This document shows positions 8,979-47,196 of a DNA stretch of 64,000 bases, in pieces; position 1 is the first letter of the stretch, and every line of letters starts with the position of its first letter. Source of the stretch: a candidate division WOR-3 bacterium (GTDB lineage Bacteria; Hydrothermota; Tepidihabitantia; SM23-42; JAOAFX01); the NCBI GenBank assembly GCA_965649105.1, contig CBFGJP010000002.1:637-64636 (forward strand), read 5' to 3'. Both the position numbers and the translations under genes were made by a program. Under the pieces are notes generated by a model that searched no databases, had not been told where the DNA came from, and saw nothing but the letters and a program-made list of their open reading frames with translations.

Positions 8979-9605
8979 CTACTTGAAAATTTCTTTTCCC
9001 TTACCAACGATTTTATTCAATTGTTCTCTGAAATAGTCAGTATTTTCTACGATATGTTTAGGAATTTGCTGACAATAATACTCCCAGGAGCGTTTTATTT
9101 CAGCACCAAGGAGTTGCACCAGGGTTCCATCGCGCAGACCCTGTTCAACCTTTTCTTGATTATAGAGAACAAGATCAGAAGCAAGTGCCTTGGCAAGTCT
9201 TCTTGCCCTCTCGTGCCACTTTTTATCTTCTTCGCTCATTTCCGGCTGGAGCGGTGTTTTAGGTTTTGAGACAATTTCTGCCTGAGGCGCAACTGGACTT
9301 TCAACTTGGGGAGGTTCGGGAATTTCTGGTTTTGGTGGAGGTTGCACAGTAGGCTGTGGGATATTTTCCTGTGCGGGTTTTTGCATCTCGGATGATACAG
9401 TCGGTTCTACCTTATATGGTGGTTCAACTTTGGGGGGTGGGGGTGGGGTTTCAACACGCGGAACCTCAGGTATTGACGGTGGGCTCTCTTTTTTTATTAA
9501 AATCACATTCTGACACTTTGGGCATTTAACCTTTACACCACTTGCAGGAATTTTATTTTCATCGACATTATATTTTGAATGGCAATTTGTGCATTCAACA
9601 ATCAT
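8979..9605 (-). CDS. zinc-ribbon (MJ0042-type CxxC…CxxC) protein with proline-rich linker and conserved C-terminal domain
   Basis: N-terminus CTNCHSKYNVDENKIPASGVKVKCPKCQN. About 90 aa of P/E/V-rich low-complexity sequence. Structured helical C-terminus. Confidence 0.5.
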   Translation of the reverse strand: MIVECTNCHSKYNVDENKIPASGVKVKCPKCQNVILIKKESPPSIPEVPRVETPPPPPKVEPPYKVEPTVSSEMQKPAQENIPQPTVQPPPKPEIPEPPQVESPVAPQAEIVSKPKTPLQPEMSEEDKKWHERARRLAKALASDLVLYNQEKVEQGLRDGTLVQLLGAEIKRSWEYYCQQIPKHIVENTDYFREQLNKIVGKGKEIFK

Positions 9606-10188
9606 TTTTTAACTCCTTCAAAATCTTCAGGCACTGCCTTTTGAGTTGCCAAAGCGTGCCATTATTTTTTATAACATATTTTGCCGCCCGTTCCATCTCA
9701 GATTCTTTTTTCTGGCTCTGCAGGATACGGTAAAATATCTTTTCCGGAATCCCTCTTTTTTGTGCCCTTGTTTTTTTGGTTTCAAGTGGTGCCTTAACGA
9801 GAATGGGATAATCAACTTTTTTTAATAATTCGGGCCAATCAAAAAGCAATGCAGCATCAATTACCACCATACCACTGGGAATACTATCAATCTTTTTGTT
9901 AATTTCCTCAAGCAATCTGGGATGAGAAAGACGATTAAGAATCCTCAGATATTTTTGATTAGAAAAGACAATGTCCCGCAGTTTTTTTCTGTCAACCTTT
10001 TCACCTGTAAATATCTCATCACCAAAATGGATTTTTAATCTTTCGGCAATTGCTGGCAATATGCTTTTCCCGATGCGATCAGCAGAAATATATTTCATTC
10101 CCCAGGATTGAAACATCTTGGCAACAGTTGTTTTTCCTGAACCAATGTTCCCGCCCACCCCGATCACCACCTTATTTTTTTTCATCAA
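9595..10188 (-). CDS. coaE: dephospho-CoA kinase
   Basis: P-loop GVGGNIGSGKTT at the N-terminus; length 197 aa; CoaE family pattern (DAD…, C-terminal lid). Confidence 0.85.
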   Translation of the reverse strand: MMKKNKVVIGVGGNIGSGKTTVAKMFQSWGMKYISADRIGKSILPAIAERLKIHFGDEIFTGEKVDRKKLRDIVFSNQKYLRILNRLSHPRLLEEINKKIDSIPSGMVVIDAALLFDWPELLKKVDYPILVKAPLETKKTRAQKRGIPEKIFYRILQSQKKESEMERAAKYVIKNNGTLWQLKRQCLKILKELKNDC

Positions 10189-12570: not shown

Positions 12571-12598
12571 TTGACAATAAAGATAAATTCAATATAAT
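12571..12598 (+). promoter_or_regulatory. sigma70-type promoter TTGACA-16-TATAAT upstream of ORF 12616
   Basis: ttgaca 12571-12576; tataat 12593-12598; AGGAG RBS at 12607-12611. Confidence 0.6.
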
Positions 12599-12615: not shown

Positions 12616-13002
12616 ATGCAAGGAAAGGTCATCTTTGATTACGATGAAAAAAGTAACATAGTCTTTACGGAAGACCACTGGGAGATAAAGACCAAACAGG
12701 ATGTTGATGAATTTTTTGCTGAATATCAAAGATACTTTCAGAAATTGGGTAAAAAAGTATATATGATATCAAATATTGATGACCTTTTAGTCCATGCCGA
12801 AGTCGCTGAGTATTATGGAGAGGTAGCAAAGAATACGGTTTCTATTTATCTCTTGGGTTTTGCCCGTTACGGAACAAAGGATTGGGCAAGGATGACTGTG
12901 CGCACAACTTCTTTGAAGGCAAAATTTTCACCCAACATTTATAGCACACGCGAAGAGGCGATACAGGCGATTGAGAAGCAAAAACAACCAAAATCTGAAT
13001 GA
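12616..13002 (+). CDS. hypothetical protein (128 aa), first gene of a five-gene operon
   Basis: ORF with RBS and consensus promoter; no recognisable family motif. Confidence 0.5.
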   Translation: MQGKVIFDYDEKSNIVFTEDHWEIKTKQDVDEFFAEYQRYFQKLGKKVYMISNIDDLLVHAEVAEYYGEVAKNTVSIYLLGFARYGTKDWARMTVRTTSLKAKFSPNIYSTREEAIQAIEKQKQPKSE

Positions 13003-13032: not shown

Positions 13033-14442
13033 ATGGAATATATAAGTTATAAATCTCCAATAATTGGTAAAAAGGGCAAAAAATTAATTGACCGTGATAA
13101 AAAAGTGATGTTTGGCGCCCATACCAGAACGAGAGAAATACCACTCGTTGTGGAAAGGGCAAAGGGTGCCTGGATAACAGATGTTGATGGCAGAAAATAT
13201 CTTGATTTTGGGGCGGGATTTGCCGTTGTTGGCACTGGACACTGCCATCCTGAGGTGATAAAGGCGGTAAACAAACAGATAAGAATGTTGATTCACATTT
13301 CAGGTAGTGATTTTTACTATGAACCACAGATTGCCCTTGCTGAAAAACTCGTTAAAATTACACCAGGAGATTTTGATAAGCGTGTTTATTTTGGAAGTTC
13401 TGGTGCTGAGGCGATAGAGGCATCTTTAAAAATTGCGCGGTATTATACAAGAAGGACGAAGATGATTTCATTCATAGGTGGATTCCACGGCAGAACCTTT
13501 GCAGGAATGACGATGTCCGGGAGCAAAAAGGTCCAGCGTGCACATTTTTCTGCCTTAATCCCGGAGGTTTTCCACACCCCCTATCCATATTGTTATCACT
13601 GTTTCTTCAATCAGACTTATCCGGAGTGTATAAAAAAGGAATTTGAAGAAGTCCCACTCCTTTATTGCCTCTCTTATTTAACTGATGTCATTTTTGAACG
13701 GTTGATAGACCCGGAAGATGTGGCATTGATAATGGTGGAACCCATCCAGGGTGAGGGTGGATATATCGTTCCCCCCAAGGAGTTTCTACCGGCACTCCGG
13801 GCAATTGCAGATAAATACGGGATTGTATTAATCTTTGATGAAATTCAAAGTGGCCTGGGCAGAACCGGCAGGTGGTTTGCCTGTGACCATGTCAATGTTG
13901 CACCGGATATAATTTTGATTGCCAAGGCAATAGCATCGGGACTGCCAATGAGTGCTACAGTGGGAAGGGCAGAACTGATGGATGTAGAGGTGGACACCCG
14001 TGCCTGGGTTCCTGGTTCTCATGGCTCCACATTTGGAGGGAATCCGGTCATTGCCTCAGCTGGAATTGCCTCACTGGAATTGATTGAAAAAGGTTTGATT
14101 GAAAATGCCCGGATTATTGGTGAATATTTGAAGAACGGGTTGATTGAGATAATGAATCGCCATAAGATCATCGGCGAGGTCCGGGGACTCGGTTTGATGA
14201 TTGGACTGGAGATTGTTCAACACAAAGAAACAAAAGAACATTTCCCGAGGGTTGTGACAAAAGATGGCAAGAACATAAAAGAGGTTATTACGGGTGAATG
14301 TTTTAAAAGGGGATTGATTCTCTATGGGGCTGGATTCAACTCCATCAGGATTTCACCTCCACTTGTCATTACAAAGAACGAAGCCGATATTGCATTGAAA
14401 ATAATTGATGAAGTTATAACCTTTGTTGAATCACAATTATGA
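13033..14442 (+). CDS. class-III pyridoxal-phosphate aminotransferase (acetylornithine/GABA/ornithine aminotransferase family)
   Basis: 469 aa; family pattern including GFHGRT and DEIQSGLGRTG motifs; PLP-lysine expected in IAKAIASGLP. Confidence 0.85.
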   Translation: MEYISYKSPIIGKKGKKLIDRDKKVMFGAHTRTREIPLVVERAKGAWITDVDGRKYLDFGAGFAVVGTGHCHPEVIKAVNKQIRMLIHISGSDFYYEPQIALAEKLVKITPGDFDKRVYFGSSGAEAIEASLKIARYYTRRTKMISFIGGFHGRTFAGMTMSGSKKVQRAHFSALIPEVFHTPYPYCYHCFFNQTYPECIKKEFEEVPLLYCLSYLTDVIFERLIDPEDVALIMVEPIQGEGGYIVPPKEFLPALRAIADKYGIVLIFDEIQSGLGRTGRWFACDHVNVAPDIILIAKAIASGLPMSATVGRAELMDVEVDTRAWVPGSHGSTFGGNPVIASAGIASLELIEKGLIENARIIGEYLKNGLIEIMNRHKIIGEVRGLGLMIGLEIVQHKETKEHFPRVVTKDGKNIKEVITGECFKRGLILYGAGFNSIRISPPLVITKNEADIALKIIDEVITFVESQL

Positions 14443-15788
14443 TAAATCCATCAATATTCAGGGAATACGATATAAGGGGCATCGCTGATACCGATTTAAA
14501 CGATGAAAATGCAGAATTGCTGGGATTGGGTCTCGGCACATATTACCGTGTAAATAAGCAAAATACCGTTATCATTGGTGGGGATGTGCGAATCTCCACT
14601 CCACGCATAATGGCGATTTTTATAAAGTGCCTGCGCGATGCTGGATGTAATGTGATTGATATCGGCACTGTCCCTACACCAGTCCTTTATTTTTCGTTAT
14701 TCCACTACAATATCCCCAATGGGATAATTGTGACTGCAAGCCATAATCCGAAGGATTTCAATGGCTGCAAGGTTTGTGCAAAAAAGACCGCAATCTATGG
14801 TGAAGAGATTCAGCAGATTAAAAAGATAATTGAAAAAAGGGAATTTTCAAAAGGGAAGGGAGGTTATGAAAAAAAGGATGTTGTCCCATTTTATATAGAT
14901 TATTTGGTATCCGGCGTAAATATAAAAAGGGAATTGAAGATCGTTATTGACACCGGGAATGGCACCTGCGGTCCGATTATGGAGAAGATATTACAAAGGC
15001 TTGGAGTAAAATTTGATATTTTATTCAAAGAACCGGATGGGAATTTCCCCAATCACCTCCCTGACCCCACGGTTGAGAAGTATATAAAAGATTTGATTGA
15101 AAGGGTCAAATCCGAAAGATTTGATGCGGGAATAGGTCTTGATGGAGATGGTGATAGGATTGGTGTGATAGATGAAAATGGAAATATCATATGGGGCGAT
15201 GTGCTCCTTGCCATCTTTGCGGAAAAGATTATAAAAAATAAACCCGGGGCAAAGATAATATTTGAGGTAAAATGCTCTAAAGGACTGATTGAAAGGATTG
15301 AAAAACTCGGGGGCAAACCGATTATGTATCGGACCGGGCATTCATTGATAAAGGCAAAAATGAAACAGGAGAATGCGCCGCTTGCAGGAGAGATGTCAGG
15401 TCATATATTCTTTGCGGATAGGTATTTTGGTTATGATGATGCAATATACGCATCATTGCGACTCCTTGAAATACTCAGCGAAGGTAAAAAACTTTCTGAA
15501 CTTGCGGGCAGAGTTCCAAAGTATTTTTCCACACCAGAGATTCGTGTTGATACTACTGATGATAAAAAATTTTTGATTGTAGAAAAACTGAAGTCTGAAT
15601 TCAAAAGTAAATACAAAATTATTGATATTGATGGTATCCGTGTTGATTTTGGCGATGGCTGGGGACTTGTGAGGGCGTCAAATACCCAGCCGGTCTTGGT
15701 CTTGCGGTTTGAGGCAAAAACAGAAAAAAGGCTTGAAGAAATAAAAAATTTATTTTTCACCAAGTTAGAGGATATAGGTCTGAAATAA
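14439..15788 (+). CDS. phosphomannomutase/phosphoglucomutase-family phosphohexomutase
   Basis: N-terminal REYDIRG, active-site TASHNP, metal loop DGDGDR, sugar loop GEMSGH. ATGA overlap with the upstream gene. Confidence 0.85.
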   Translation: MINPSIFREYDIRGIADTDLNDENAELLGLGLGTYYRVNKQNTVIIGGDVRISTPRIMAIFIKCLRDAGCNVIDIGTVPTPVLYFSLFHYNIPNGIIVTASHNPKDFNGCKVCAKKTAIYGEEIQQIKKIIEKREFSKGKGGYEKKDVVPFYIDYLVSGVNIKRELKIVIDTGNGTCGPIMEKILQRLGVKFDILFKEPDGNFPNHLPDPTVEKYIKDLIERVKSERFDAGIGLDGDGDRIGVIDENGNIIWGDVLLAIFAEKIIKNKPGAKIIFEVKCSKGLIERIEKLGGKPIMYRTGHSLIKAKMKQENAPLAGEMSGHIFFADRYFGYDDAIYASLRLLEILSEGKKLSELAGRVPKYFSTPEIRVDTTDDKKFLIVEKLKSEFKSKYKIIDIDGIRVDFGDGWGLVRASNTQPVLVLRFEAKTEKRLEEIKNLFFTKLEDIGLK

Positions 15789-15802
15789 CATAAGGGGGTT
15801 TT

Positions 15803-17479
15803 ATGGGCCTAATCTTTTTTGTTCTATTTTCACTTGAAGAACCTTCAGAAATTCTGCCGAAGTGGATGACTGCAGAGGAGAGTCTGAGGGTTGATGAGAT
15901 TGGAAAAGGACATATCGTCACTGCTCCACCCGGTGGGTTTGTTGTCACCCCTGCAGAATATGAGCCAGTGCGCGGTGTATTTGTAACCTGGGCCGGTTAT
16001 ACATCAATATTGAGAGAAATTGTTCGTCATACTGTTCCTACCTGCAAAGCATATATTATATGTTCTGATAGTAATAGTGTGAAAAGCTATTTGACAAGTG
16101 GGGGTGTGCCTTTAGATAGTGTCAGGTTCTATGCCTTTCCCTACAACTCGGTCTGGATTCGTGATTATGGTCCCTGGTTTATAAGAAAGCAGGATAATAC
16201 CGAAGGCATTGTAGATTTTCAGTACAATCGTCCAAGACCCAGTGATGATACAATTCCCTGGCGTATTGGACAGGCCTGGGGGATACCAGTCTATGGTTCA
16301 CCTCTTGAACATCCGGGTGGTAACTTTATGGTGGATGGCCATGGCACCGGATTCTTCAGCAGTTTAATATATGAAGAAAATCCCGGTTATACACCCGCAC
16401 AAATCAATCAACTGATGCTTGAATATAATGGTCTTGAGCAAACAATTCCAGTAAAGAGAATCCTCACCGAATACACCGGTCATATTGATTTGTGGACAAA
16501 GATTCTAAATGATACACTTGTAATGGTTGGTGAATATGCTTCAGGACATCCTAATGATACGGTCCTTGATAACCGGGCTGATTCAATCAGCCGGTGCAAA
16601 AATAGAGAAGGATTCCCTTATCGGGTTGTCAGAATCGTCATGCCCTGGTCAACATCAGATGCACCACCAACATATCTTAATTCGCTTTTTGTAAATAATA
16701 GAATTCTGGTGCCGACCTGGGGATTGTCAACCGACCAACAGGCACTCAATACATATCAGCAATATCTGCCTAATTATACCGTTGTAGGAATAAACTGCTC
16801 ATCAATGAGTGGTTCAGGTGGTGCTATCCATTGTATAACGATGCAGGTCCCAAAATCAGAATTCATCCATATTGCACATAACCGGCTTACTGATACATAT
16901 AATATCTCCACACCCTACCGAGTTCGGGCAAGGATAATAACCTCAAGTAATCTCAGACCTGAATCAACCCTCGTATTGTATAAGAAAAATAGCCAGCCGA
17001 GTTTTACAACAGTTCCATTGAGTGCAGTTCCAGATACTGCGGGTGTTTATGCAGGGTATATACCTCCGCAATCGTCAGGTGATACAGTCCATTACTACAT
17101 TCTTGCAAAGAATAATCACAATATTCGGAGAACTTCACCTTCCTATGTACCGCCACAATTGTATTCTTTCCGTATTCTTCCAGTTGCAGTTTTAGAGCAG
17201 TATGTACGGACTTTAAATGGCTTTGCGATATATCCCAATCCGACAAAGGGGATTCTTAATTTCTTAGTAAACTTACCATATCCCGCAAAAGTAAAGATAG
17301 AGATATACAATGCAATCGGTCAGAAACTGAATATTTTTGAAGGCAAGTATGATAAAGGAAAGCATGTCATCACCTATGACATTAAACATAATAATAAGAA
17401 TCTTCCAGTTGGTGCCTATTTCTATAGGGTAGAGATTGATGAAAACATAATCAGCGGCAAATTCTTGGTGGTAAGATAA
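15803..17479 (+). CDS. secreted agmatine deiminase / Porphyromonas-type peptidylarginine deiminase (PPAD) family protein with T9SS C-terminal sorting domain
   Basis: WIRDYGP and GGAIHCITMQ catalytic-Cys motifs of the guanidino-group-modifying enzyme fold. Hydrophobic N-terminus. C-terminal approx. 80 aa with the T9SS CTD pattern (…GAYFYRVEIDENIISGKFLVVR). Confidence 0.75.
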   Translation: MGLIFFVLFSLEEPSEILPKWMTAEESLRVDEIGKGHIVTAPPGGFVVTPAEYEPVRGVFVTWAGYTSILREIVRHTVPTCKAYIICSDSNSVKSYLTSGGVPLDSVRFYAFPYNSVWIRDYGPWFIRKQDNTEGIVDFQYNRPRPSDDTIPWRIGQAWGIPVYGSPLEHPGGNFMVDGHGTGFFSSLIYEENPGYTPAQINQLMLEYNGLEQTIPVKRILTEYTGHIDLWTKILNDTLVMVGEYASGHPNDTVLDNRADSISRCKNREGFPYRVVRIVMPWSTSDAPPTYLNSLFVNNRILVPTWGLSTDQQALNTYQQYLPNYTVVGINCSSMSGSGGAIHCITMQVPKSEFIHIAHNRLTDTYNISTPYRVRARIITSSNLRPESTLVLYKKNSQPSFTTVPLSAVPDTAGVYAGYIPPQSSGDTVHYYILAKNNHNIRRTSPSYVPPQLYSFRILPVAVLEQYVRTLNGFAIYPNPTKGILNFLVNLPYPAKVKIEIYNAIGQKLNIFEGKYDKGKHVITYDIKHNNKNLPVGAYFYRVEIDENIISGKFLVVR

Positions 17480-18318
17480 TGAAAATTGTAAAAAAAATTG
17501 CCGAACTAAAAAAATTAGTAAAACAAATTAAGAGTAAAAAGAAATCCATCGGTTTTGTGCCAACGATGGGCTATCTCCATGAAGGACATTTATCTTTGAT
17601 AAGAATTGCCCATAAGCATAGCGATTATGTGGTATGTTCAATCTTTGTCAATCCAACACAGTTTGGCCCAAACGAAGACTTTAATCGTTATCCAAGGGAT
17701 CTAAAGCGAGACGAAAATTTGTTAAAAAAAGAAAGGGTTGATTTACTTTTTTATCCTTCGGTAAAAGAGATGTATCCCGATGGCTACAAGACTTATGTTG
17801 AAGTAGAAGAATTGAGTTCTGTTTTGTGTGGAAAATCAAGACCCGGACACTTTCGCGGTGTGGCAACGGTGGTATTGAAATTATTCAACATTGTCCAACC
17901 GGATATTGCGGTTTTTGGCGAGAAAGATTATCAGCAGGCAATTATTATCAAACAGATGGTAAAGGATTTAAACCTTGATGTAAGGGTTATCACCGGACCG
18001 ATTGTGCGTGAATCAGATGGGCTGGCAATGAGTTCGCGTAATACATATTTGAGTCCTGAAGAAAGAATTAATGCAACAATCATTTACAAGGCATTGACCT
18101 GGGCAAAGGATTCATTTTATAAGGAGAATATCAAGAGCCCGGAGTATCTAATAACGCAGATTAGAAAGATGATTGAGGAAAGAGGCGGTAATGTTGATTA
18201 TATATCAATTGTAGATAAAAATGATTTGACGCCAGTGAGGTTTCTTAAAAAAGGCGATCGGATATTACTTGCGGTCTTTTTCGGTAAAACCAGACTAATA
18301 GATAATATCGCGATTTAA
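17479..18318 (+). CDS. panC: pantoate--beta-alanine ligase
   Basis: 279 aa; PTMGYLHEGHLSL HIGH-type motif; family-wide similarity. Confidence 0.9.
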   Translation: MKIVKKIAELKKLVKQIKSKKKSIGFVPTMGYLHEGHLSLIRIAHKHSDYVVCSIFVNPTQFGPNEDFNRYPRDLKRDENLLKKERVDLLFYPSVKEMYPDGYKTYVEVEELSSVLCGKSRPGHFRGVATVVLKLFNIVQPDIAVFGEKDYQQAIIIKQMVKDLNLDVRVITGPIVRESDGLAMSSRNTYLSPEERINATIIYKALTWAKDSFYKENIKSPEYLITQIRKMIEERGGNVDYISIVDKNDLTPVRFLKKGDRILLAVFFGKTRLIDNIAI

Positions 18319-18325
18319 AAAAGGA

Positions 18326-18353
18326 TTGACAAAAATAAAATTATAGATATAAT
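18326..18353 (+). promoter_or_regulatory. sigma70-type promoter TTGACA-16-TATAAT for ORF 18374
   Basis: ttgaca 18326-18331; tataat 18348-18353; AGGAGG RBS before ATG 18374. Confidence 0.6.
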
Positions 18354-18373: not shown

Positions 18374-18853
18374 ATGAGAAAAATCCTTGGGGTAGCAGTT
18401 GTTCTAACAATGCTGAGTGGATTATATGGTTTGACCCTCAGCCTCAGCGGCGCTTATCAGGATATCACCGATGAATACGGGGGAGGTCCATACTTTGGAG
18501 TGAAGGCAGATATTATCGTGGGACTGCTTCCAATTCTTAAGGCACGTGGATTCTTAATGGAGCTTGATTTCAGTGAAGGAACCCCGATGGCGTTTGGGAC
18601 ATTCACCGGTTCAGACCTGTTGATTACTATCCCGATGGCAGCACCGGTTCAGCCTTATGTGGTTGCCGGCTTCTGGTTTGTTAAAGATGCATATATGACA
18701 ATCAGGGGTGGACTCGGTGCAGAGATGGGATTTGGTAATATGAATGGTTATCTTGAAGGACACCTTAACTTCGTTTCGCCTGACCAGGGAGATAGCTATA
18801 TGCCTATCAACATAATGGGTGGCCTCAGATTCCCATTGAAATTAGGATTATAA
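18374..18853 (+). CDS. small secreted / outer-membrane beta-rich protein, function unknown
   Basis: Signal peptide MRKILGVAVVLTMLSG; Gly/aromatic-rich alternating pattern; C-terminal LKLGL. Confidence 0.45.
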   Translation: MRKILGVAVVLTMLSGLYGLTLSLSGAYQDITDEYGGGPYFGVKADIIVGLLPILKARGFLMELDFSEGTPMAFGTFTGSDLLITIPMAAPVQPYVVAGFWFVKDAYMTIRGGLGAEMGFGNMNGYLEGHLNFVSPDQGDSYMPINIMGGLRFPLKLGL

Positions 18854-18875
18854 TTGAGCCACCACAGATTTTTAA

Positions 18876-18906
18876 AAAAGGCGGGCATAAGCCCGCCTTT
18901 TTTATT
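18876..18906. terminator. bidirectional rho-independent terminator between ORF 18374 (+) and nadE (-)
   Basis: aaaaaaG GCGGGC ataa GCCCGC C ttttttatt: GC-rich 7-bp stem flanked by an A-run and a T-run. Confidence 0.8.
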
Positions 18907-21776: not shown

Positions 21777-21872
21777 ATCTTACCTCCTTGTTCCTCGCCA
21801 TTTTTGTGCAATTTCTCGCACCGCTACACAAGGTAGCACATCTTTATTAATATAGATGGCTTAGACCATCTA

Positions 21873-21946
<74 letters not shown>

Positions 21947-22037
21947 ATTTTGAAAGATCGTCTATGGTTATAAGGTTTGGAAGCCTGTAGCGTCAAAGGT
22001 AAAAAGTTTTTAGTTCCATTATGCTCCAAACCATATA

Positions 22038-22402: not shown

Positions 22403-23107
22403 TCAATGTGCGGGATGAAGATTATTCTTTAAAATTTCTTTTGCCCTTATTCCAATCGGTGAATTTGGGTATTTTACAACCAGTTCTTCAAGCATCTTTA
22501 ACCCCTCCTGTTTTTTTCCCATTTTTATGTAGATTTCGGCGACAAAAATCTTTGCCCGATGGATACGATTTGCTGGAAATTCTTTTTTCAACTCTTCAAG
22601 GGCAGATAATGCCTTCTCAAATTCATTTCTCTTGTCATAAACAAGCGAGAGGTAGAAGAGCGCAAAATCCCCAAGGTTTGTCTTTATGATCTTTTTTAAA
22701 CTATCCTCAGCAGATTTTAGGTCGTTGATTTCGTATCGGTAAATTGATTGTACCAATCTTTTCAAAAGAGCAGTATCCTTACGCGTAGACTCAATTAGAT
22801 GGAGCCTTTCCAGTGCCTCGTTCGCATACTTTGCATTAGAAAACCGCGCCACCGTTTTTAAATATTGTTCGCGCGCGGATAGTATTTCACATTTAAAAAA
22901 TAGATTTTCACCCATCAGATAATTTATCTCTGCCTCCGCCTCTAATCCGAAGCTATTTTCATATTTTTTTAGATAAAAGTTGGCACTATCAAATAAGCCC
23001 ATTTTGCGATATGCATCATTCAATGCAATGATATATGAATAATCTGGTTTTATTTCAATCAAATTCTTTAAGGAATCTATCTCCATAAAGAGTAAAATTA
23101 AGATCAT
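22403..23107 (-). CDS. TPR-repeat protein
   Basis: 234 aa of helical TPR-like repeats. ATGA overlap with the upstream giant ORF. Confidence 0.6.
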   Translation of the reverse strand: MILILLFMEIDSLKNLIEIKPDYSYIIALNDAYRKMGLFDSANFYLKKYENSFGLEAEAEINYLMGENLFFKCEILSAREQYLKTVARFSNAKYANEALERLHLIESTRKDTALLKRLVQSIYRYEINDLKSAEDSLKKIIKTNLGDFALFYLSLVYDKRNEFEKALSALEELKKEFPANRIHRAKIFVAEIYIKMGKKQEGLKMLEELVVKYPNSPIGIRAKEILKNNLHPAH

Positions 23108-26100
23108 TCTTGCTCCAGCAATGCCTTAAAATATTCTCTTATATAAGCTTCATATTCTACAGGATGGGGTTGTTTCAAAGCCCTTTGGATTATTTCCATT
23201 AATGCATCATGCCCCAATTCCTGCGGTAAGGAAGCCGGGGAAAGATGTCTTATATCTTCACCCGGCTTACTTTTTCTTTCTTTGGTCCAGTCTTCCTGTC
23301 TTATTGATCTTTCAGCATCAAGTAGCCTTGATATGATTAATTGCTGGCGTTCAATGAGTTTCCTATCTATTTTGTACTGATACAATGCTTCTTCCGTCTC
23401 TTTCATTTCTTCCGCAATATTATCGAGCAGTTCCTGGAATTTCCCCGCCTCAGGATAGCCTTTCAGCGATTCAAGTGCCTGTCTAAGTTCACGCTGTTTT
23501 CCGGCAAGGCGTTGAATCTGTGCCATTTGTTCGGAAGTTAATCCACTTGATAGAATGGGGAAGAGGTTAAATATTGATTGCCCAATACCCATCTGGTTTT
23601 GTGCCAGCGAAGATAAATTTTTCAAAAATTCATCAATACCAGTTGATGAACCGCTACCTTCCACAGCCTTTTTCAAACTCTGGAGCATTGATAAAGATGC
23701 AAGATTCAATTGTTTCATTGCCTCCCGAACATGGAATTTACCAGTATTTGCCGGATTTAAAGATGCTAATTCCATTTCCTTCAAAGCCTTGCTCAATCTT
23801 TTGCCAATCTCCGGTCCGACATAAATGCTTTTTACCTGCTGGGCATAAAGACTTTCTGCTACTTCATTTGTTGCCTTTGCAATCAACGATTGCCTATCCG
23901 GGTCAATCTTTTCTAATGTCAACAATTCTTCTTCAAGTTTAGACAACTCAATCAATTGATTCAGTGTTTCAAGGAGATTCCTTCGTAAATTTGCTGCCCT
24001 GCCTTTTGTCAATTCTTCATACAACCTCTGTAAATCTGCGGATAGTTTATTCAGTTCCTTTTTTAGTTCTTCGGGATTGAGGTTTTCTCCGTGAGACATT
24101 GAATGCGCCTGTTTTGAAGCCTGTTTTAATTGTTCTGAGATTTCTGGTTCAAGATTTTCGGATTCAGAAAGTTTTTCAATTTCTTTTGCAAGGCTATCAA
24201 TGGTTCGGTAAAGACTATCAAGGGATTCTTTCAATCCTTCCATTCCTTTGATTTCGCCAAGTCTTTTTAAATCTTCTGCCTGCTCCGACAATTCCTTTGC
24301 CTTATCGGCAAGTTCTTTTAATCTTTCTTCCTGTTGATACCTTTTTAGTAGTTCAAGGGTTCTCTCCAATGCGTTAGCAAGTTCTTCCTGGGCTTCCTTC
24401 AATTGTTCCATTGCCTTTTTTAGTTCTTCAGGATTTTTATGCAATGCCTGCTGCAAGTTCTCAAGTGCCCTTTTTAACTCCTCGGGTGCAATTTCTTTAA
24501 GTATTTTCGTAATCTCCTGGAGTCTTTCAATCGATTTCTGATCGAGAAAGATTCCGCTCTTTAATTTATCAATCGTATTCTTCAATTCATTTTGCCATTC
24601 TTCAATCTTTTTTAGGACCTCCTCTTCTTTATTTATGACTTCTTTAAGTTTTTCATTATCAAGCCAGGATAATTCTCGCTCCCGTTTTAATTTCTCTTCA
24701 AGCCTTTTTACTTCCTTCATTCCTTCCTGATGAGTACTTTTGAGATCTTTAATTTCAGATACAACCATTTCTTCCCTGCCCTTTACTTCTTCATATATTT
24801 GTTCCATTGTGGGGAAGTAAATGAAATATGTCTTGCTCTTAGTACGCTGACCACCCTGGTCCTGGACGACAACAAAATAAGAAACTCTATCTCCCGGCAA
24901 CATCCTCAGTTCGCTTAAATCCCACACATAAAAGATTGTATCATCAGTGCTGCCTTTTTTAAACTTCAAACTTATATCTTCCGCATTCTTGAATTGATAC
25001 ATTAGATTAACCTTACTCAAGCCATAATCATCACTGCATCTTATCCCCAAGGTGATTTTCATATTCGGGGGCATATTGATGTTGTATCCGGGAGAAAAAA
25101 TCTCTACAAGAGGCGCGAGGTCTGGTATTGCATAGATTGATATTTCTTCATTATGCGACGTTTCTCCGATGATTATTAAATTGGCTGTACCGCTTGAAGC
25201 AATTTTAAATCTTCCCGAAAATGATTCTCCATTACAGATAAGTTCTGTTGTATCGTTAAATAATAATCTTGCCTGGTTAATAACCTGCGATGCCTTTCCT
25301 TTTATCTCTACTTCTGTTCCCACAGGAACAATCAACTGTCTATCGTTCTTTATTTCATCCCACAACTTTGTATATTTTGGATAATGAATATAAAAGGTTA
25401 ACTCTTTTAGATATATTGGTTCAATAACACCTATGCTATAATCACCGGTCTTCAAATTGAAGAATTCAAAATGATAATTGAATGGTTCAATTATTTCAAT
25501 CTTTTTGTTTGCTTTACCATCAATAACCGGTAGTTCAAATCTTTTTATCCCGGTTTTTGTTTTGTAAACAAACACTACTTTTTCTGGAATATATGGTCCA
25601 AAAAGATTTAATGTAAATTCTACATTATCATTACGGCTAAATCTCCCTGATTTTGGTATAACAGTATATTCAATCCTGTGATTCAACGCAAACCAGAATC
25701 TACCCGGTAAGAATCCTGGAAAAGAAAGGACAAAGAGTAATGAAATTAAAAAAAACCCCAATGACCAGTTTAGAAACTTCTTGTCCGTAAATTTTTTGAC
25801 TTCAATATTAGCAAATTTTTCATCTGTAGATTCAACAAACGCATTTATCAGTTCTCTTGAGTAACCTTCACGATTATTTTCAGGGATGTGGAATATCTCA
25901 ATGGTGCTCACAATCTCGCCATTTGCGCCAACTTTCCGGTCTAACTCTTTTGCCCACTCGGCAAATTTTTTCCTACGATAAAAAATTATTGGAATTAAAC
26001 CGATAAATCCGTATAACGGAGATTTCAATAAAAATAACGAGACGGTTGTAGAAATCAGAATTGCACCTAAGGTGAATAAAAGCAAAGCAAAAAAATTTAT

Positions 26101-26151
26101 TAATCCTTGTTTATGTGCATACTTAATTACTTTTCTATCAATTATTGTCAT
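23104..26151 (-). CDS. giant membrane-anchored protein: N-terminal double TM and second TM pair, beta-rich middle region, approx. 320-aa coiled-coil, helical C-terminal domain
   Basis: 1015 aa. TM segments at approx. 20-60 and 125-150. Residues approx. 440-760 are strongly heptad-like E/K/L-rich. Translationally coupled to DUF4159 (upstream) and TPR (downstream) genes. Confidence 0.6.
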   Translation of the reverse strand: MTIIDRKVIKYAHKQGLINFFALLLFTLGAILISTTVSLFLLKSPLYGFIGLIPIIFYRRKKFAEWAKELDRKVGANGEIVSTIEIFHIPENNREGYSRELINAFVESTDEKFANIEVKKFTDKKFLNWSLGFFLISLLFVLSFPGFLPGRFWFALNHRIEYTVIPKSGRFSRNDNVEFTLNLFGPYIPEKVVFVYKTKTGIKRFELPVIDGKANKKIEIIEPFNYHFEFFNLKTGDYSIGVIEPIYLKELTFYIHYPKYTKLWDEIKNDRQLIVPVGTEVEIKGKASQVINQARLLFNDTTELICNGESFSGRFKIASSGTANLIIIGETSHNEEISIYAIPDLAPLVEIFSPGYNINMPPNMKITLGIRCSDDYGLSKVNLMYQFKNAEDISLKFKKGSTDDTIFYVWDLSELRMLPGDRVSYFVVVQDQGGQRTKSKTYFIYFPTMEQIYEEVKGREEMVVSEIKDLKSTHQEGMKEVKRLEEKLKRERELSWLDNEKLKEVINKEEEVLKKIEEWQNELKNTIDKLKSGIFLDQKSIERLQEITKILKEIAPEELKRALENLQQALHKNPEELKKAMEQLKEAQEELANALERTLELLKRYQQEERLKELADKAKELSEQAEDLKRLGEIKGMEGLKESLDSLYRTIDSLAKEIEKLSESENLEPEISEQLKQASKQAHSMSHGENLNPEELKKELNKLSADLQRLYEELTKGRAANLRRNLLETLNQLIELSKLEEELLTLEKIDPDRQSLIAKATNEVAESLYAQQVKSIYVGPEIGKRLSKALKEMELASLNPANTGKFHVREAMKQLNLASLSMLQSLKKAVEGSGSSTGIDEFLKNLSSLAQNQMGIGQSIFNLFPILSSGLTSEQMAQIQRLAGKQRELRQALESLKGYPEAGKFQELLDNIAEEMKETEEALYQYKIDRKLIERQQLIISRLLDAERSIRQEDWTKERKSKPGEDIRHLSPASLPQELGHDALMEIIQRALKQPHPVEYEAYIREYFKALLEQE

Positions 26152-26783
26152 CTCAGCGTTAATACATAAACAACAATATTTATTCCCATTCTCAATGCCT
26201 GTTCTCTTTTTTCCGGTGGGTCATTATGCACATCCGGGTCTTCCCAACCGTCACCAAGATCAGTCTCATAGGAATAGAATAATACAAGACGATTATTATA
26301 AAATATACCGAATCCCTGGGCAGGTTTATTATCATGCTCATGGATTTTAGGAAGTCCTTCAGGAAAATCATAAAAAGAATGGTATATAGGATGGTCAAAG
26401 GGTAGTGGAATCAATGGTGAATCAGGAAACACCCGTGCTATTTCTTTTCTAAAAGAAGAATCCATCCCATAACAGTCATCTGCGTGGAGAAAGCCACCAT
26501 TGATTAGATAATTCCTTAAAATTTTTACCTCTTCATCACTAAATTTAACATTACCATGGCCAGTCATATAAAGATAAGGGTATTTAAATATATCAGGGTT
26601 TGTGAGTTCAACCACCGCCTCTTTTGGTGCGGCGCGAATGTTGGTTCTTTCATTAATTGCCTTCAATAGATTGGGTAGGGAACTCGGGTCACAATACCAA
26701 TCTCCGCCGCCTCCATATTTCAATCGCGCAATGGTAAAATCATACTGGTTGAACAACAAAAGTTCAAGAAGCAAAAAGACCAT
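26148..26783 (-). CDS. DUF4159-family protein
   Basis: 211 aa; hydrophobic N-terminus; conserved motifs YGGGGDWYCDP, YPYLYMTGHG, GGFLHADDCYG as remembered for DUF4159. Confidence 0.55.
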   Translation of the reverse strand: MVFLLLELLLFNQYDFTIARLKYGGGGDWYCDPSSLPNLLKAINERTNIRAAPKEAVVELTNPDIFKYPYLYMTGHGNVKFSDEEVKILRNYLINGGFLHADDCYGMDSSFRKEIARVFPDSPLIPLPFDHPIYHSFYDFPEGLPKIHEHDNKPAQGFGIFYNNRLVLFYSYETDLGDGWEDPDVHNDPPEKREQALRMGINIVVYVLTLR

Positions 26784-26860
26784 ATTTTTATTATAAACTA
26801 AAACAAATCTTTGTCAAGATAAGAATAAATTCAGTTGCTGCCTTTAATAAAAAATATATC

Positions 26861-26888
26861 TTGCATATTGATATTATTTATATATAAT
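26861..26888 (+). promoter_or_regulatory. sigma70-type promoter TTGCAT-16-TATAAT; leaderless start at yidD ATG 26896
   Basis: ttgcat 26861-26866, tataat 26883-26888, ATG 7 nt later. Confidence 0.55.
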
Positions 26889-26895
26889 CCCTTAA

Positions 26896-27258
26896 ATGAT
26901 TTTAATAATCTTATTTCTTCTCAGCCAGCAACCGAAAGAGACAAATCCGGTAAAGGTAGTCTTTAAAACAACTATAAAATTATATCAAAAACTTATTTCA
27001 CCAGCCCAGGGTGATGTCTGTAATTTTTCTCCTTCCTGTTCTCATTTTGCCTCAGCAGCAATTGAAAAATATGGAATATTCTGGGGTTCCTTGATGGCTG
27101 CTGACCGTCTGATGCGGTGCAATCCTTCAGCAATAAATTACTTTGATACATTTTATTCCGGCATAAAGGATAATAAAGTATATGACCCTGTAGAAAATAA
27201 TTATATTTTAGGATCGATTAAAAAGCATTTTGAAATATTTATTGAGCCGATAGAATGA
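26896..27258 (+). CDS. yidD: membrane protein insertion efficiency factor YidD
   Basis: ISPAQGDVCNFSPSCSHFASAAIEKYG…RLMRCNP matches the YidD (DUF37) signature. Confidence 0.8.
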   Translation: MILIILFLLSQQPKETNPVKVVFKTTIKLYQKLISPAQGDVCNFSPSCSHFASAAIEKYGIFWGSLMAADRLMRCNPSAINYFDTFYSGIKDNKVYDPVENNYILGSIKKHFEIFIEPIE

Positions 27259-27959
27259 TTATCTTTTTTATCTTATTTCAGTCAGAATTATTCAATCCTG
27301 AGCAAATTTTAAAATTTGGTGATTGTTTATTCATTGAAGGCGATTATAATGCGGCGTTAAATGAATATCGTAGATACTTATATTTATGCGATAGCAATAA
27401 ACAGGTGGTTAATGAAAAAATAATTGATTGTCTGGCACATTTGGGGAGATATGATGAAGCCATCTCGGCATTAAAGTATTTTGATGATTCAACCAAACTA
27501 ATATATACAAAATCCTGGTTATATCTATTAAAAAAAGATTATCCCGCAGTCAGAGATTTGCTTAAGGATAAAGTTAATGAACAAAAGGCAAGGCATTATA
27601 TCGGATTGAGTTATGCCGGTGAATTCAACTTTGCAAAGGCCGGCGAATTCATTAATTTACCAAACCCCCTACCTCGGCATAAGAGCCCATTCCTTGGTGG
27701 ATTATTCTCTTTATTCCCCGGTGGTGGCAATTTTTATTGCAAAAGAGTCGGAGATGGAATCTACTCAATGCTTATAATCGGTACCGGTGCGGGAATTGCT
27801 TACTATTATCATTCGCAAAATGAAAATACAAAATTTTATCTCGCCCTCGGGATAAGTCTTTTATTTTATGCCGGCAACATTTATGGCGGGATAAATGCTG
27901 TGCGTAACTATAATTATTACGAAGATGTAAGATATCGGGATTTAATTTTTAATAGATGA
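27255..27959 (+). CDS. TPR-like N-terminal domain / Gly-rich membrane C-terminal domain protein (paralog A)
   Basis: C-terminal LFPGGGNFYCKRVGDG…IGTGAGIAYYY…YAGNIYGGINA pattern; ATGA coupling on both sides. Confidence 0.5.
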   Translation: MIIFFILFQSELFNPEQILKFGDCLFIEGDYNAALNEYRRYLYLCDSNKQVVNEKIIDCLAHLGRYDEAISALKYFDDSTKLIYTKSWLYLLKKDYPAVRDLLKDKVNEQKARHYIGLSYAGEFNFAKAGEFINLPNPLPRHKSPFLGGLFSLFPGGGNFYCKRVGDGIYSMLIIGTGAGIAYYYHSQNENTKFYLALGISLLFYAGNIYGGINAVRNYNYYEDVRYRDLIFNR

Positions 27960-28711
27960 TACTTTTAATCTTCAGTCAATTTTGTCTTGCTGAATCTTTG
28001 TTCTATAATAATCAATACGATCTGGCAGTGATTGAATATAAAAGATTATTCTTCTTTGATTCTACTTCATATAAAAATATGCAATTGCGTTTGCATTACA
28101 CCATTACACGCCTTTATAAAGATTATTTCTCAGGCTATGAAGATCTACAAAAATTATTGAATGATTTTCCGGATATTGATGCAGAATCTAGAATCTTGCT
28201 TGCTAAAGAGCTCATCAATACTGATAATTTTAGCCTTGCCATTGATGTTTTGAAATCAATCAGCGAAGATAATCTTTTGAAAAAAAGGTTAACCGGTTAC
28301 GGTTATTTATTTAACCATCAATATTATAATGCCTTGCACGAATTTCAAGGTATGGATGAAAATCTCAGTGCAGAGATAGAGCGGTATATAAATGGGTCAC
28401 GAAAGTCAATCACCCGTGCAATGTTATTCTCCGCAATTCTACCGGGCACGGGTGAAGTATATGCGGGTGATTTAAAAAGAGGAATTCAGGATTTCATTCT
28501 TACCTTTTTGAGTGGATTTCTGATGTATAACTCAATCAAAAATAAAAAATATGTAGATGCCGGGATTATATTTAGTCTTGCATTCAATCGTTTTTACTTT
28601 GGTTCAATATCTAATGCGGGAAGGATTGTTTATAAAATAAATGAACAATCAGAAGAGGAATTTTTAAAAAAAATAAAATTGAAATATTATCAACAGGAGT
28701 TCAATGATTAA
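27956..28711 (+). CDS. TPR-like N-terminal domain / Gly-rich membrane C-terminal domain protein (paralog B)
   Basis: Same architecture as 27255-27959, with C-terminal ILPGTGEVYAGDLKRG…FLSGFLMYN motif. Confidence 0.5.
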   Translation: MILLIFSQFCLAESLFYNNQYDLAVIEYKRLFFFDSTSYKNMQLRLHYTITRLYKDYFSGYEDLQKLLNDFPDIDAESRILLAKELINTDNFSLAIDVLKSISEDNLLKKRLTGYGYLFNHQYYNALHEFQGMDENLSAEIERYINGSRKSITRAMLFSAILPGTGEVYAGDLKRGIQDFILTFLSGFLMYNSIKNKKYVDAGIIFSLAFNRFYFGSISNAGRIVYKINEQSEEEFLKKIKLKYYQQEFND

Positions 28712-28834: not shown

Positions 28835-30496
28835 ATGATTCCACTAATTTTTATTTTATTATCAATGCCACCAAGTCCGTATACCCGGGCACCGATTAAA
28901 CCCCCCAAATTTCCTGCCTTAATGAATAGAGGCCCGGGATTTATTCAACCGGCACTCGGTGAAAAAAAGACAATTGTAATACTTGTGGATTTTTCCGATA
29001 ATGTAGCACAATATCCTAAGTCAGGATTTGATTCTTTGATCTATGGCGAAAATGAAAATTCTATGCGTAAATACTACAGTGAAGTATCCTATGGAAAGTT
29101 TACCATCAGCAAACAGAGTAATATCGTCGGCTGGGTTCGTGCACCGCAGAATTATGACTATTATGTCGGTGATTCATTTGGCTTTTACAGTGATTATCCC
29201 CATAATGTGCAGAAACTTGTCGAAGATGCCTGTGCCCTTGCTGACCCTTATGTTGATTTTTCTCAATATGACGGCGATGGCGATGGAATAGTGGATGGGA
29301 TATTCATTGTCCATGCCGGTCCGGGTGCTGAAGAAACCGGTAGTCCAAATGATATCTGGTCCCACCAGTGGCAACTCTCAAATACCGGGACGAGTTGTCC
29401 CGGACCTTATCAGACCCAAGACGGGGTGAAGGTAGATTATTACTCAATGGAACCGGAAAAGCTTGTTAATCCGCCTTCAAGGATCACGGTTGGTGTCTTT
29501 GTCCATGAATTTGGCCATGTACTTGGATTGCCTGATTTGTACGATATAGATTACTCAACAAATGGAATTGGTTTGTTCTGTTTAATGGCGGCTGGTTCCT
29601 GGGGTAGAATCAATTCTGCAGATCTCCCCGGCAATTCGCCATCCCATCCTTCTGCCTGGTGCAAATATCAACTGGGCTGGCTTACACCGACACCGGTAGA
29701 ACAGTCTGGGATTAGCAAATTGGAGCAGCAGTTAATTCCCTGCTCAGCAAAGAGTCCATTTGCAATTCGGATGTGTGAAGACCCGGGTGGTCCAGACTGG
29801 AATAGTTATACTGGTGGAAGGGGTGAATATTTCCTGATTGAGAACAGATACCGAACTGGATTTGACCGCGCGCTTCCTGGTAATGGATTGCTCATTCTCC
29901 ATGTTGATGATTCAAGAACAACCAACCAAAATGAAAACCATCCATTGGTCGGTATTATGCAGGCAGATGGTGAGGCTGGTTTTTTGCTTCCAAGGTCCAC
30001 CTGGGGAAGGGCTGAAGACTTATGGAAGAATGACACGATTGGATTCTATGATGGTTCAATACCATCAAGTAGATTTTATGGCGATTCCGCAAGCGGTGTA
30101 ACAGTTTATAATATCGGACCTGCAGATTCTATAATGACCGCATCCTTCTGGATAAGCCCAGTATTTCTGGGAAGGGTTGCTTCGTTTCCTAATCCATTTC
30201 GAGCTGATCGATTACCGTCGTGGGGCAAAAGTGTTGTTATTTCATATACACCATCTGATACCACCGAGTTAGGTGCTCAACATCCACCGTTTAAAGTCAC
30301 AATATATAATATCGCAGGAGAAAGGGTAAGAATTCTTGATACCCCAGATGAAATTGACATCTATAGAAGGTGTGCATTATGGGATTTGAAGAACGAAAAA
30401 GGAAATGATGTGGTGAGTGGGATGTATATCTATGTTATTGAATTACAGACAGAAAGGGTAGAAAGGAGTAAGGGTAGACTCACTATAATCAGATAA
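28835..30496 (+). CDS. secreted M6-family (immune inhibitor A-like) zinc metalloprotease with T9SS C-terminal sorting domain
   Basis: HEFGHVLGLPDLYD zincin motif in M6 context; N-terminal signal sequence; C-terminal approx. 80 aa with T9SS CTD pattern (…KVTIYNIAGERVRIL…GMYIYVIELQT…). Confidence 0.75.
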   Translation: MIPLIFILLSMPPSPYTRAPIKPPKFPALMNRGPGFIQPALGEKKTIVILVDFSDNVAQYPKSGFDSLIYGENENSMRKYYSEVSYGKFTISKQSNIVGWVRAPQNYDYYVGDSFGFYSDYPHNVQKLVEDACALADPYVDFSQYDGDGDGIVDGIFIVHAGPGAEETGSPNDIWSHQWQLSNTGTSCPGPYQTQDGVKVDYYSMEPEKLVNPPSRITVGVFVHEFGHVLGLPDLYDIDYSTNGIGLFCLMAAGSWGRINSADLPGNSPSHPSAWCKYQLGWLTPTPVEQSGISKLEQQLIPCSAKSPFAIRMCEDPGGPDWNSYTGGRGEYFLIENRYRTGFDRALPGNGLLILHVDDSRTTNQNENHPLVGIMQADGEAGFLLPRSTWGRAEDLWKNDTIGFYDGSIPSSRFYGDSASGVTVYNIGPADSIMTASFWISPVFLGRVASFPNPFRADRLPSWGKSVVISYTPSDTTELGAQHPPFKVTIYNIAGERVRILDTPDEIDIYRRCALWDLKNEKGNDVVSGMYIYVIELQTERVERSKGRLTIIR

Positions 30497-39289: not shown

Positions 39290-39720
39290 CCGGGGTGGTC
39301 GGATAGCCGCCTTGCACTGCTGGTGCGAGGAGGAAAGTCCGGGCTTCACAGGGCAGGATGCTTCCTAACGGGAAGGGGCTGTCTATGAATGGATTTGCAT
39401 CGGTTAAATGCAAAACATTCTTAGATGGCTACGGAAAGTGCCACAGAAAATATACCGCCTGCCGCTATTGCTGGCAGGTAAGGGTGAAAAGGTGGGGTAA
39501 GAGCCCACCGCTCCAGTGGTGACACTGGAGGCATGGCAAACCCCATCCGAAGCAAGACCAAACAGTCCTGTATATAGTTGCCCGCTTGGTCTTAAAAAGA
39601 CGCAGGACAGGTAGGTCGCTTGAGTCCGATGGTGACATCGGTCCCAGATAAATGGCTATCTATGTCCGCCATTCACTATGGCGAACTAAAACAGAACCCG
39701 GCTTATGAACCACCCCATCC
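39290..39720 (+). ncRNA. rnpB: RNase P RNA (bacterial type A)
   Basis: Conserved GAGGAAAGTCCGGGCTTCACAGGGCA (P4 region), AAGGGTGAAAAGGTGGGGTAAGAGCCCACC, and 3' ACAGAACCCGGCTTA…ACCACCCC pairing with 5' GGGGTGGT (P1). Confidence 0.85.
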
Positions 39721-39725
39721 TACTA

Positions 39726-47174: not shown

Positions 47175-47196
47175 TTAAATCATTAAGGAGGTTTTG

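Follow-up and report, generated by a model that had tools for sequence, protein, structure and literature searches.

The window analysed here is a 64,000-nucleotide stretch of DNA from a candidate division WOR-3 bacterium (contig CBFGJP010000002.1 of GenBank assembly GCA_965649105.1). Our subject is a gene on its forward strand that encodes a predicted deiminase resembling the peptidylarginine deiminase of Porphyromonas gingivalis (PPAD), together with the operon that contains the gene (Table 1). An original prediction, made from the sequence alone, had described the product as an arginine or agmatine deiminase carrying a C-terminal domain for sorting by a type IX secretion system (T9SS). The open reading frame (ORF) is real, and an earlier start is blocked by an in-frame TAA at 15791–15793. 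Both motifs quoted in the prediction are present in the translation, WIRDYGP and GAIHCITMQ, the latter encoded at 16820–16846.

Table 1. Features of the deiminase locus, and C25-family genes next to the deiminase gene in other WOR-3 loci. Positions refer to the window unless a locus (L number) is given.
Feature	Position	Strand	Basis or remark
Candidate sigma-70-like promoter, TTGACA-16-TATAAT, 12/12 matches	12571–12598	+	Consensus scan alone; 5' of the five-gene unit
128-aa ORF without family match, first in the unit	12616–13002	+	Kept only in close relatives
Class-III aminotransferase, acetylornithine aminotransferase family	13033–14442	+	PRK05769, 552.8 against a cut-off of 552
Phosphoglucomutase/phosphomannomutase, four PGM_PMM domains	14439–15788	+	Family search
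Shine-Dalgarno-like AAGGGGG	15792–15798	+	Read from the sequence; 4 nt 5' of the deiminase ATG
Gene for the predicted PPAD-type deiminase; 558 aa, with leader and C-terminal domain counted	15803–17479	+	Domain, structure and residue evidence
Minimal hydrophobic leader MGLIFFVLFSLEEP, no Lys/Arg n-region, presumed Sec signal	15803–15844	+	Model confidence (pLDDT) <50 for residues 1–20
Conserved N-terminal segment (I)LPxWMTxEESLRxxEIGKGH	15851–15919	+	Alignment; common to Bacteroidota PPAD-like proteins
Pentein-fold catalytic domain, residues 40–350, with D121, H227, D229, N293 and C344	15920–16852	+	Pfam, sequence, model and fold
R143-P-R145 of YNRPRP, equivalent to PPAD Arg152/Arg154	16229–16237	+	Alignment, codons read; PMC4893104
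Cys344 codon, predicted catalytic nucleophile (PPAD Cys351)	16832–16834	+	Alignment, codon read
Ig-like beta-sandwich, residues 355–458, aligned to the PPAD Ig-like fold	16865–17176	+	Sequence, model and fold
T9SS type-A C-terminal sorting domain, residues 473–558	17219–17476	+	Pfam, NCBIfam, conservation and model
panC, pantoate-beta-alanine ligase	17479–18318	+	Family search
Second perfect candidate sigma-70-like promoter, 5' of the 159-aa ORF	18326–18353	+	Consensus scan
159-aa ORF without family match	18374–18853	+	
Strong terminator-like hairpin, 14 pairs, T-runs on both sides	18873–18904	.	Only strong one found
C25-family protein gene of context B	L015 443–2782; L019 871–3198; L021 3358–5658; L023 5030–7339; L030 4614–6914		
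C25-family protein gene of context B, further contigs	L081/L082 2668–4971; L083 2665–4974		

Pfam searches placed the catalytic family PAD_porph (PF04371) at residues 51–350 (E = 1.3e-45; score 156.5 bits, cut-off 25) and Por_Secre_tail (PF18962) at residues 476–555 (34.1 bits against a cut-off of 27), and the NCBIfam model TIGR04183 scored 34.1 bits against a cut-off of 23. The models named as a check in the original prediction were thus all above their curated cut-offs. An AlphaFold2 model derived from an alignment of 52 homologues had a mean predicted local distance difference test score (pLDDT) of 84.5. It consists of the catalytic domain, a beta-sandwich at residues 355–458 (pLDDT ~80–95), a disordered linker at residues 463–471 and a second beta-sandwich at residues 473–556.

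When the protein was compared by sequence with all solved structures, five P. gingivalis PPAD entries were the best matches (E = 1.4e-57 to 9.5e-56), and the alignment covered query residues 40–457, spanning both the catalytic and the immunoglobulin (Ig)-like domains. The best agmatine deiminase-like chain, 1XKN, gave an E-value of 1.5e-28, and bona fide agmatine deiminases gave values of about 1e-14 or weaker. The structural comparison suggested in the prediction was carried out with Foldseek against the Protein Data Bank (PDB). PPAD entries came first (best 4ytb, E = 1.5e-40 over 430 aligned columns), far ahead of the agmatine deiminases (E = 1e-27 to 1e-20), which aligned across the catalytic domain only. 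We conclude that the domain order is that of P. gingivalis PPAD, i.e. catalytic, Ig-like and T9SS C-terminal domains, and that the protein is nearer to PPAD than to any agmatine deiminase in both sequence and fold. The resemblance to PPAD (PDB 4YT9, 4YTB and 5AK7) extends to overall length (558 versus 556 aa) and to the whole layout, which in both proteins begins with a leader and an N-terminal segment, continues with the pentein catalytic domain and then the Ig-like domain, and ends in a T9SS type-A C-terminal domain. The hosts differ, as PPAD comes from an oral pathogen whereas the window comes from a free-living uncultured WOR-3 bacterium.

Active site and predicted substrate

The crystallographic study of PPAD identified Asp130, His236, Asp238, Asn297 and Cys351 as the catalytic residues, and Arg152, Arg154 and Tyr233 as the residues that bind a C-terminal arginine by its free carboxylate. 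Mutation of the arginines in this clamp lowers activity (PMC4893104), and the clamp sets the exo-specificity of the enzyme. We recovered the PPAD numbering from the printed alignment, and it agrees with the published numbers. Residues W118, D121, R143, R145, Y224, H227, D229, N293 and C344 of the window protein correspond to W127, D130, R152, R154, Y233, H236, D238, N297 and C351 of PPAD, so that no substitution is seen in the catalytic pentad, at Trp127 or in the Arg152/Arg154/Tyr233 clamp. The Cys/His/Asp triad on which the original prediction depended is therefore present after alignment (C344, H227 and D121/D229), and N293 is present as well. All of these mapped residues, W118 included, were also unchanged in each of the 120 listed homologues covering the position.

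What makes the arginine pair informative is a comparison with two further PAD_porph subfamilies that carry a T9SS tag: in the members sampled, the pentad is kept but one or both arginines are missing. In the 'YYxGR' type (Flavobacteriales, Kapabacteria and Chlorobiota) the pentad and the T9SS C-terminal domain are accompanied by loss of the clamp arginine(s) and of Tyr233, and in the 'YNNSG' type (Bacteroidales and some WOR-3) one or both clamp arginines are missing. As clamp residues are missing from both types, their substrates are probably different. Conversely, the presence of the complete clamp in the window protein implies a pocket suited to a guanidino substrate with a free alpha-carboxylate, which would be either C-terminal or free arginine; agmatine has no such carboxylate.

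Agmatine deiminase (AguA, TIGR03380; PDB 2JER, 3HVM and 1VKP, and putatively 1XKN) shares the pentein fold, the Cys/His/Asp machinery and PF04371 with the window protein. However, AguA is a cytoplasmic, single-domain enzyme of 330–390 aa without an Ig-like or sorting domain, whereas the 558-aa window protein has both. An AguA-like enzyme that converts agmatine to N-carbamoylputrescine outside the cell or in the periplasm would be consistent with the label 'agmatine deiminase family protein' given to homologues in public records, with the inclusion of both enzyme types in PF04371, and with the adjoining class-III aminotransferase, which could in principle use putrescine or gamma-aminobutyric acid. 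We nevertheless consider this assignment very unlikely. The NCBIfam agmatine deiminase models scored far below their cut-offs (TIGR03380, 79.5 against 381.8; NF010070, 76.4 against 483), with the best-scoring stretch of each match confined to the last ~60 residues of the domain. In addition, PPAD is by far the better match, the pocket retains an Arg/Arg/Tyr clamp for a group that agmatine lacks, and no N-carbamoylputrescine amidase gene was found nearby, the sole CN_hydrolase domain being that of NadE. Of the two activities offered in the original prediction, we retain arginine deimination and disfavor agmatine deimination.

The clamp would suit free arginine as well as C-terminal arginine, and free L-arginine is also, though less readily, deiminated by PPAD, which favors peptidyl substrates (PMC6367333). 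The gene could therefore specify a surface enzyme that chiefly deiminates free L-arginine, harvesting ammonia and citrulline instead of modifying peptides, and conservation of the gene among housekeeping genes across WOR-3 would agree with such a role. This alternative appears unlikely to us. Apart from the preference of PPAD, orthologues in other lineages of WOR-3 lie together with genes for secreted peptidases of the C25-like and C1 kinds, and neither ornithine carbamoyltransferase nor carbamate kinase was seen in our scans of the window.

Having weighed these alternatives, we think it probable, if well short of certain, that this candidate division WOR-3 bacterium produces from the gene a peptidyl-arginine deiminase of the PPAD type, with specificity for C-terminal arginine. 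By homology with PPAD, Asp121 and Asp229 would grip the guanidinium group of the arginine, while Arg143, Arg145 and Tyr224 would clamp its free alpha-carboxylate. Cys344 would attack the guanidino carbon with the assistance of His227 and Asn293, ammonia would leave, and water would resolve the thiouronium intermediate to give citrulline. The expected substrate is the C-terminal arginine of peptides; free L-arginine would be used less well and agmatine would not be used. The enzyme could serve to supply ammonia or control pH, to remove positive charge from peptides, or to modify the cell's own surface proteins.

Proposed export to the cell surface

Every full-length member of the WOR-3 family begins with Met followed by ~10–13 mostly hydrophobic residues without Lys or Arg, and then the LPxWMTxEESLRxxEIGKGH segment. 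In this respect the window protein, with its minimal leader, differs from PPAD, whose signal peptide is ordinary and charged. In the Bacteroidota homologues, the same LPxWMT segment comes after a charged signal peptide of the ordinary kind, 20–30 residues long. A minimal leader (Met plus 8–11 hydrophobic residues, no Lys or Arg) was also observed at the window gene starts 28835, 27255, 27956, 22403 (− strand) and 26148 (− strand). As it is shared by other exported-looking proteins of the window, the short leader looks like a habit of the lineage and not a defect, and it may be a lineage-specific minimal signal peptide.

The conserved N-terminal segment that follows the leader matches the pro-peptide region of PPAD, which is a degenerate form of the LPxWMTxEE...IGKGH segment. 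Arg43, where the pro-peptide of PPAD is known to be cleaved, falls opposite K35 in the alignment with the window protein, and this position is Lys or Arg in 37 of 52 family members. The alignment hints that the segment is a conserved pro-peptide or an N-terminal structural element.

At the other end of the protein, sorting-domain positions P478-N479-P480, G537-x-Y539 and G552-K553 are invariant or nearly so in the 52 family members, which are 55–90% identical to the query. The hidden Markov model (HMM) of the deiminase-family sorting domain also matched numerous proteins encoded in WOR-3 loci, both peptidase-like and FG-GAP, indicating that WOR-3 encodes many proteins with this domain. Within the window, the C-terminus of an M6 metallopeptidase encoded at 28835–30496 on the + strand (TIGR03296, 218 bits) matched the same HMM with an E-value of 1.4e-7 but fell below the Pfam threshold. 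By sequence, this peptidase is probably a second T9SS-type cargo protein. The window also encodes LpxC and LpxD, and an outer membrane has been seen in the one cultured strain of WOR-3 (PMC12285271); together these findings indicate a two-membrane (diderm) cell.

In the proposed route, the very short uncharged leader would take the protein across the inner membrane via Sec, and the C-terminal domain would then direct it through a T9SS-like pathway to the cell surface, where the enzyme would act on arginine-ending peptides made by co-secreted peptidases. The conserved sorting domains imply that WOR-3 possesses a T9SS-like export route, and we found no report of one. Secretion is thus inferred on good grounds from sequence features, and is not a demonstrated fact.

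Several observations weigh against a surface-exported enzyme of the PPAD type. Identity to PPAD is 32.5% over 406 positions, the biochemistry available for the family comes from Porphyromonas only, and among the mapped positions there is a single difference, Thr in place of PPAD Ile234. The leader has ~10–11 hydrophobic residues, contains no Lys or Arg and cannot be extended upstream, which leaves export less than certain. No T9SS core gene was found when nearly all ORFs of at least 110 aa in the 64-kb window were searched with Pfam and NCBIfam, a literature search pairing WOR-3 with T9SS found no paper, and a 2024 list of phyla possibly possessing T9SS omits WOR-3. Furthermore, the operon partners in the window are cytoplasmic housekeeping enzymes, and the C25-like neighbors found in other WOR-3 loci (see below) lack the catalytic histidine, which weakens an analogy with gingipains. 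A search for ORFs of the size of SprA in all 83 loci retrieved likewise found none.

The short leader without basic residues, the lack of T9SS core genes in the window and of a WOR-3 report in the searchable literature, and the position of the gene among those for cytoplasmic enzymes would all be explained if the enzyme were not exported to the surface, its C-terminal domain being a relic or having some other role and its activity residing in the cytoplasm or periplasm. We regard this explanation as improbable. The C-terminal domain exceeds both curated cut-offs and its signature residues are retained across the family, the same minimal leader occurs on other evidently exported proteins of the window, including the M6 peptidase with the sorting domain, and many cargo-type proteins in WOR-3 loci bear such a domain. 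We favor a PPAD-type enzyme that would reach the cell surface.

Gene neighborhoods in the window and across WOR-3

The deiminase gene is one of five co-directional genes, in the order small ORF, class-III aminotransferase, phosphohexomutase, deiminase and panC. Pfam and NCBIfam matches agree with the description of these neighbors in the original prediction. The start of the mutase gene overlaps the stop of the aminotransferase gene within an ATGA at 14439–14442, and the panC ATG overlaps the deiminase stop within a TAATG at 17477–17481; both were read directly from the sequence, and the proposal of an operon with coupled stop and start codons is upheld. The terminator-like hairpin (Table 1) marks the end of the + strand unit and also of the convergent nadE gene. 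The partners of the deiminase gene in the operon, which had been called metabolic, are housekeeping genes, and we see no functional connection between them and the deiminase. Co-transcription with such genes suggests constitutive expression and not a shared pathway. As a separate observation, the aminotransferase gene and panC share the operon, and coaE is located in the adjacent region at 9595–10188 on the − strand; that the aminotransferase is a source of beta-alanine for pantothenate synthesis is speculation.

ORF clustering in 38 WOR-3 loci revealed two recurrent contexts, which we refer to as A and B. Context A consists of aminotransferase, mutase and deiminase genes, with the mutase gene in 21 and the aminotransferase gene in 18–19 of the 38 loci. 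This order was seen in 19–22 of the 38 loci, roughly half, and is kept down to 55% deiminase identity, including in two complete chromosomes. It is usually followed by ybaB and dnaX on the opposite strand, and panC is found 3' of the deiminase gene only in close relatives (identity of at least 78%). The gap between the mutase and deiminase genes is 13–17 bp in the window and its closest relatives and reaches >200 bp elsewhere, and in three loci a gene for a 23S rRNA intervening-sequence protein lies between the two. A pathway shared by the deiminase with the aminotransferase or mutase is unsupported in view of the insertion in three loci, the presence of dnaX and ybaB on the 3' side, and the different context in the other sub-lineage. 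We read context A as an inherited order of housekeeping genes with constitutive co-transcription, and not as a pathway.

In context B, which is found in another WOR-3 sub-lineage, the deiminase gene lies 27–130 bp 3' of a gene for a Peptidase_C25 protein of ~770 aa (E = 7e-48), the best solved relative of which is gingipain R (E = 8e-16). This protein also has a T9SS C-terminal domain. Three further contigs showed the arrangement again, and on two of them there is, in addition, a divergently transcribed gene for a C1 peptidase with a weak sorting-domain match. In P. gingivalis there is a partnership between Arg-gingipain and PPAD (PMC6367333), and the likeness of context B to it is only suggestive. 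In the five aligned C25 copies (loci L015 to L030), Glu or Thr replaces the catalytic His211 and a gap is found at the S1 residue Asp163, while Cys244 is kept. Equivalence of these neighbors to Arg-gingipain was rejected for this reason. The C25-like protein may instead be a pseudo-peptidase partner of the deiminase. The window itself contains no C25 gene and no sign of an Arg-gingipain partnership, in which it differs from the PPAD system.

Two neighbors were also considered as components of the secretion system. That the C25 protein is PorU, the sortase, was rejected, since its NF033707 score was 79.4 and the cut-off is 420; a barrel protein adjoining the orthologue in some loci gave no PorV match and only a weak one to the BamG model (63.3 against a cut-off of 250).

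Relatives, distribution and other features

The nearest homologues of the window deiminase, up to 90% identical, are encoded by candidate division WOR-3 metagenome-assembled genomes (MAGs), and a look-up of its exact sequence in public assemblies returned no record. A scan of species-representative genomes gave 38 loci with the gene at >50% identity. These are labeled WOR-3 or Stahlbacteria, apart from a few bins labeled Cloacimonadota, Latescibacterota, Gemmatimonadota or Zixibacteria. CP070664.1, CP070834.1 and CP070795.1 are complete WOR-3 chromosomes with the orthologue. Among the candidates scored, 3709 proteins pass an E-value of 1e-5; of representatives at 50% identity, 6678 match at 1e-3 and 947 at 1e-30. 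The nearest 147 representatives include ~137 with YNRPRP, 140 with the full D-H-D-N-C set and at least 94 with a recognizable C-terminal sorting domain. A longer form of the deiminase, of ~870 aa, was observed in loci L024, L026, L028, L029 and L034 (proteins P0091, P0100, P0101 and P0108); it has ~300 extra residues between the Ig-like and C-terminal sorting domains.

When PPAD was used as the query, two of the 120 listed clusters were of the Porphyromonas type (99% and 87% identity) and the other 118 were 48–57% identical over the whole query, mostly ~680 aa long and ending in a T9SS C-terminal domain. Of the 120, 117 have both Arg152 and Arg154 of YNRPRP. Named clusters in this search derive from Bacteroidales or Bacteroidota MAGs, with one from Cloacimonadota, and are called 'agmatine deiminase family protein'. 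These uncharacterized Bacteroidota and Bacteroidales PPAD-like proteins share YNRPRP, the catalytic residues, HWMTPEE...IG(R/K) and the T9SS C-terminal domain with the window protein. They differ from it in having ordinary signal peptides and in length (~670–690 aa, i.e. ~110 residues longer), and they are 48–57% identical to PPAD but ~34% identical to the window protein. The WOR-3 family was therefore rejected as the nearest relative of PPAD, the named Bacteroidota and Bacteroidales MAG proteins being closer.

A neighbor-joining tree of the catalytic domain resolved four clades, each with 100% bootstrap support: WOR-3, PPAD with Bacteroidota, and the two arginine-less subfamilies. The WOR-3 clade was sister to the PPAD/Bacteroidota clade with 74% bootstrap support. 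The original prediction described this architecture as otherwise known from PPAD, but thousands of proteins share it, in WOR-3, in Bacteroidota and in further lineages of the Fibrobacterota-Chlorobiota-Bacteroidota (FCB) group. Judged by sequence comparison, the architecture is common in FCB-group bacteria, and the window gene is an ordinary member of the WOR-3 branch.

The literature on PPAD still regards the enzyme as all but confined to Porphyromonas. One paper describes it as 'the only known prokaryotic PPAD' (PMC6367333), while a review from 2026 gives homologues in P. gulae and P. loveana only (PMC13539308); one preprint remarks that such genes are more widespread than thought. Two WOR-3 genome papers (one of them PMC12285271) contain no mention of the deiminase, secretion, peptidases or arginine. 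The window protein is an uncharacterized member of a very large, almost unstudied environmental family: homologues with the full architecture and an intact clamp are retained across many lineages of a candidate phylum that is free-living, and related proteins are abundant in uncultured Bacteroidota. If these proteins are active, bacterial C-terminal citrullination would be an environmental trait older than pathogenicity, and the automatic label 'agmatine deiminase family protein' would mislead metabolic reconstructions. What PPAD does physiologically would also become accessible to study in non-pathogens, among them, provided that it has the gene, the newly cultured WOR-3 strain sy37. The results are of use for correcting annotation and for providing a non-pathogen model, and would not surprise a specialist familiar with the databases.

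A broader proposal, to which we give only a slim chance, is that C-terminal citrullination is an ancient housekeeping surface function of FCB bacteria and not an invention of Porphyromonas virulence. WOR-3 cells would constitutively display the enzyme and neutralize the arginine C-termini of their own secreted or surface proteins, or of scavenged peptides, and some lineages would pair the enzyme with a dedicated gingipain-family partner that has lost the catalytic His. If true, this would constitute a conserved extracellular protein-modification module never described outside one oral pathogen.

Other features were observed elsewhere in the window. Tandem genes for long TldD/PmbA-like metallopeptidase homologues are present on the + strand at 47194–48867 (557 aa) and 48876–50690 (604 aa), the first of which encodes a signal-like N-terminus, and a canonical TldD/PmbA-type gene is found at 32592–34019. 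A cluster at 22403–28711 encodes a DUF4159 protein, a 1015-aa protein without a Pfam match and tetratricopeptide repeat (TPR) proteins, several with the minimal uncharged leader. A class A RNase P RNA was identified at 39291–39721 on the + strand (302 bits; a match of 431 nt to a model of 367 positions), and a tRNA-Ile(GAT) gene is located at 21872–21947 on the − strand.

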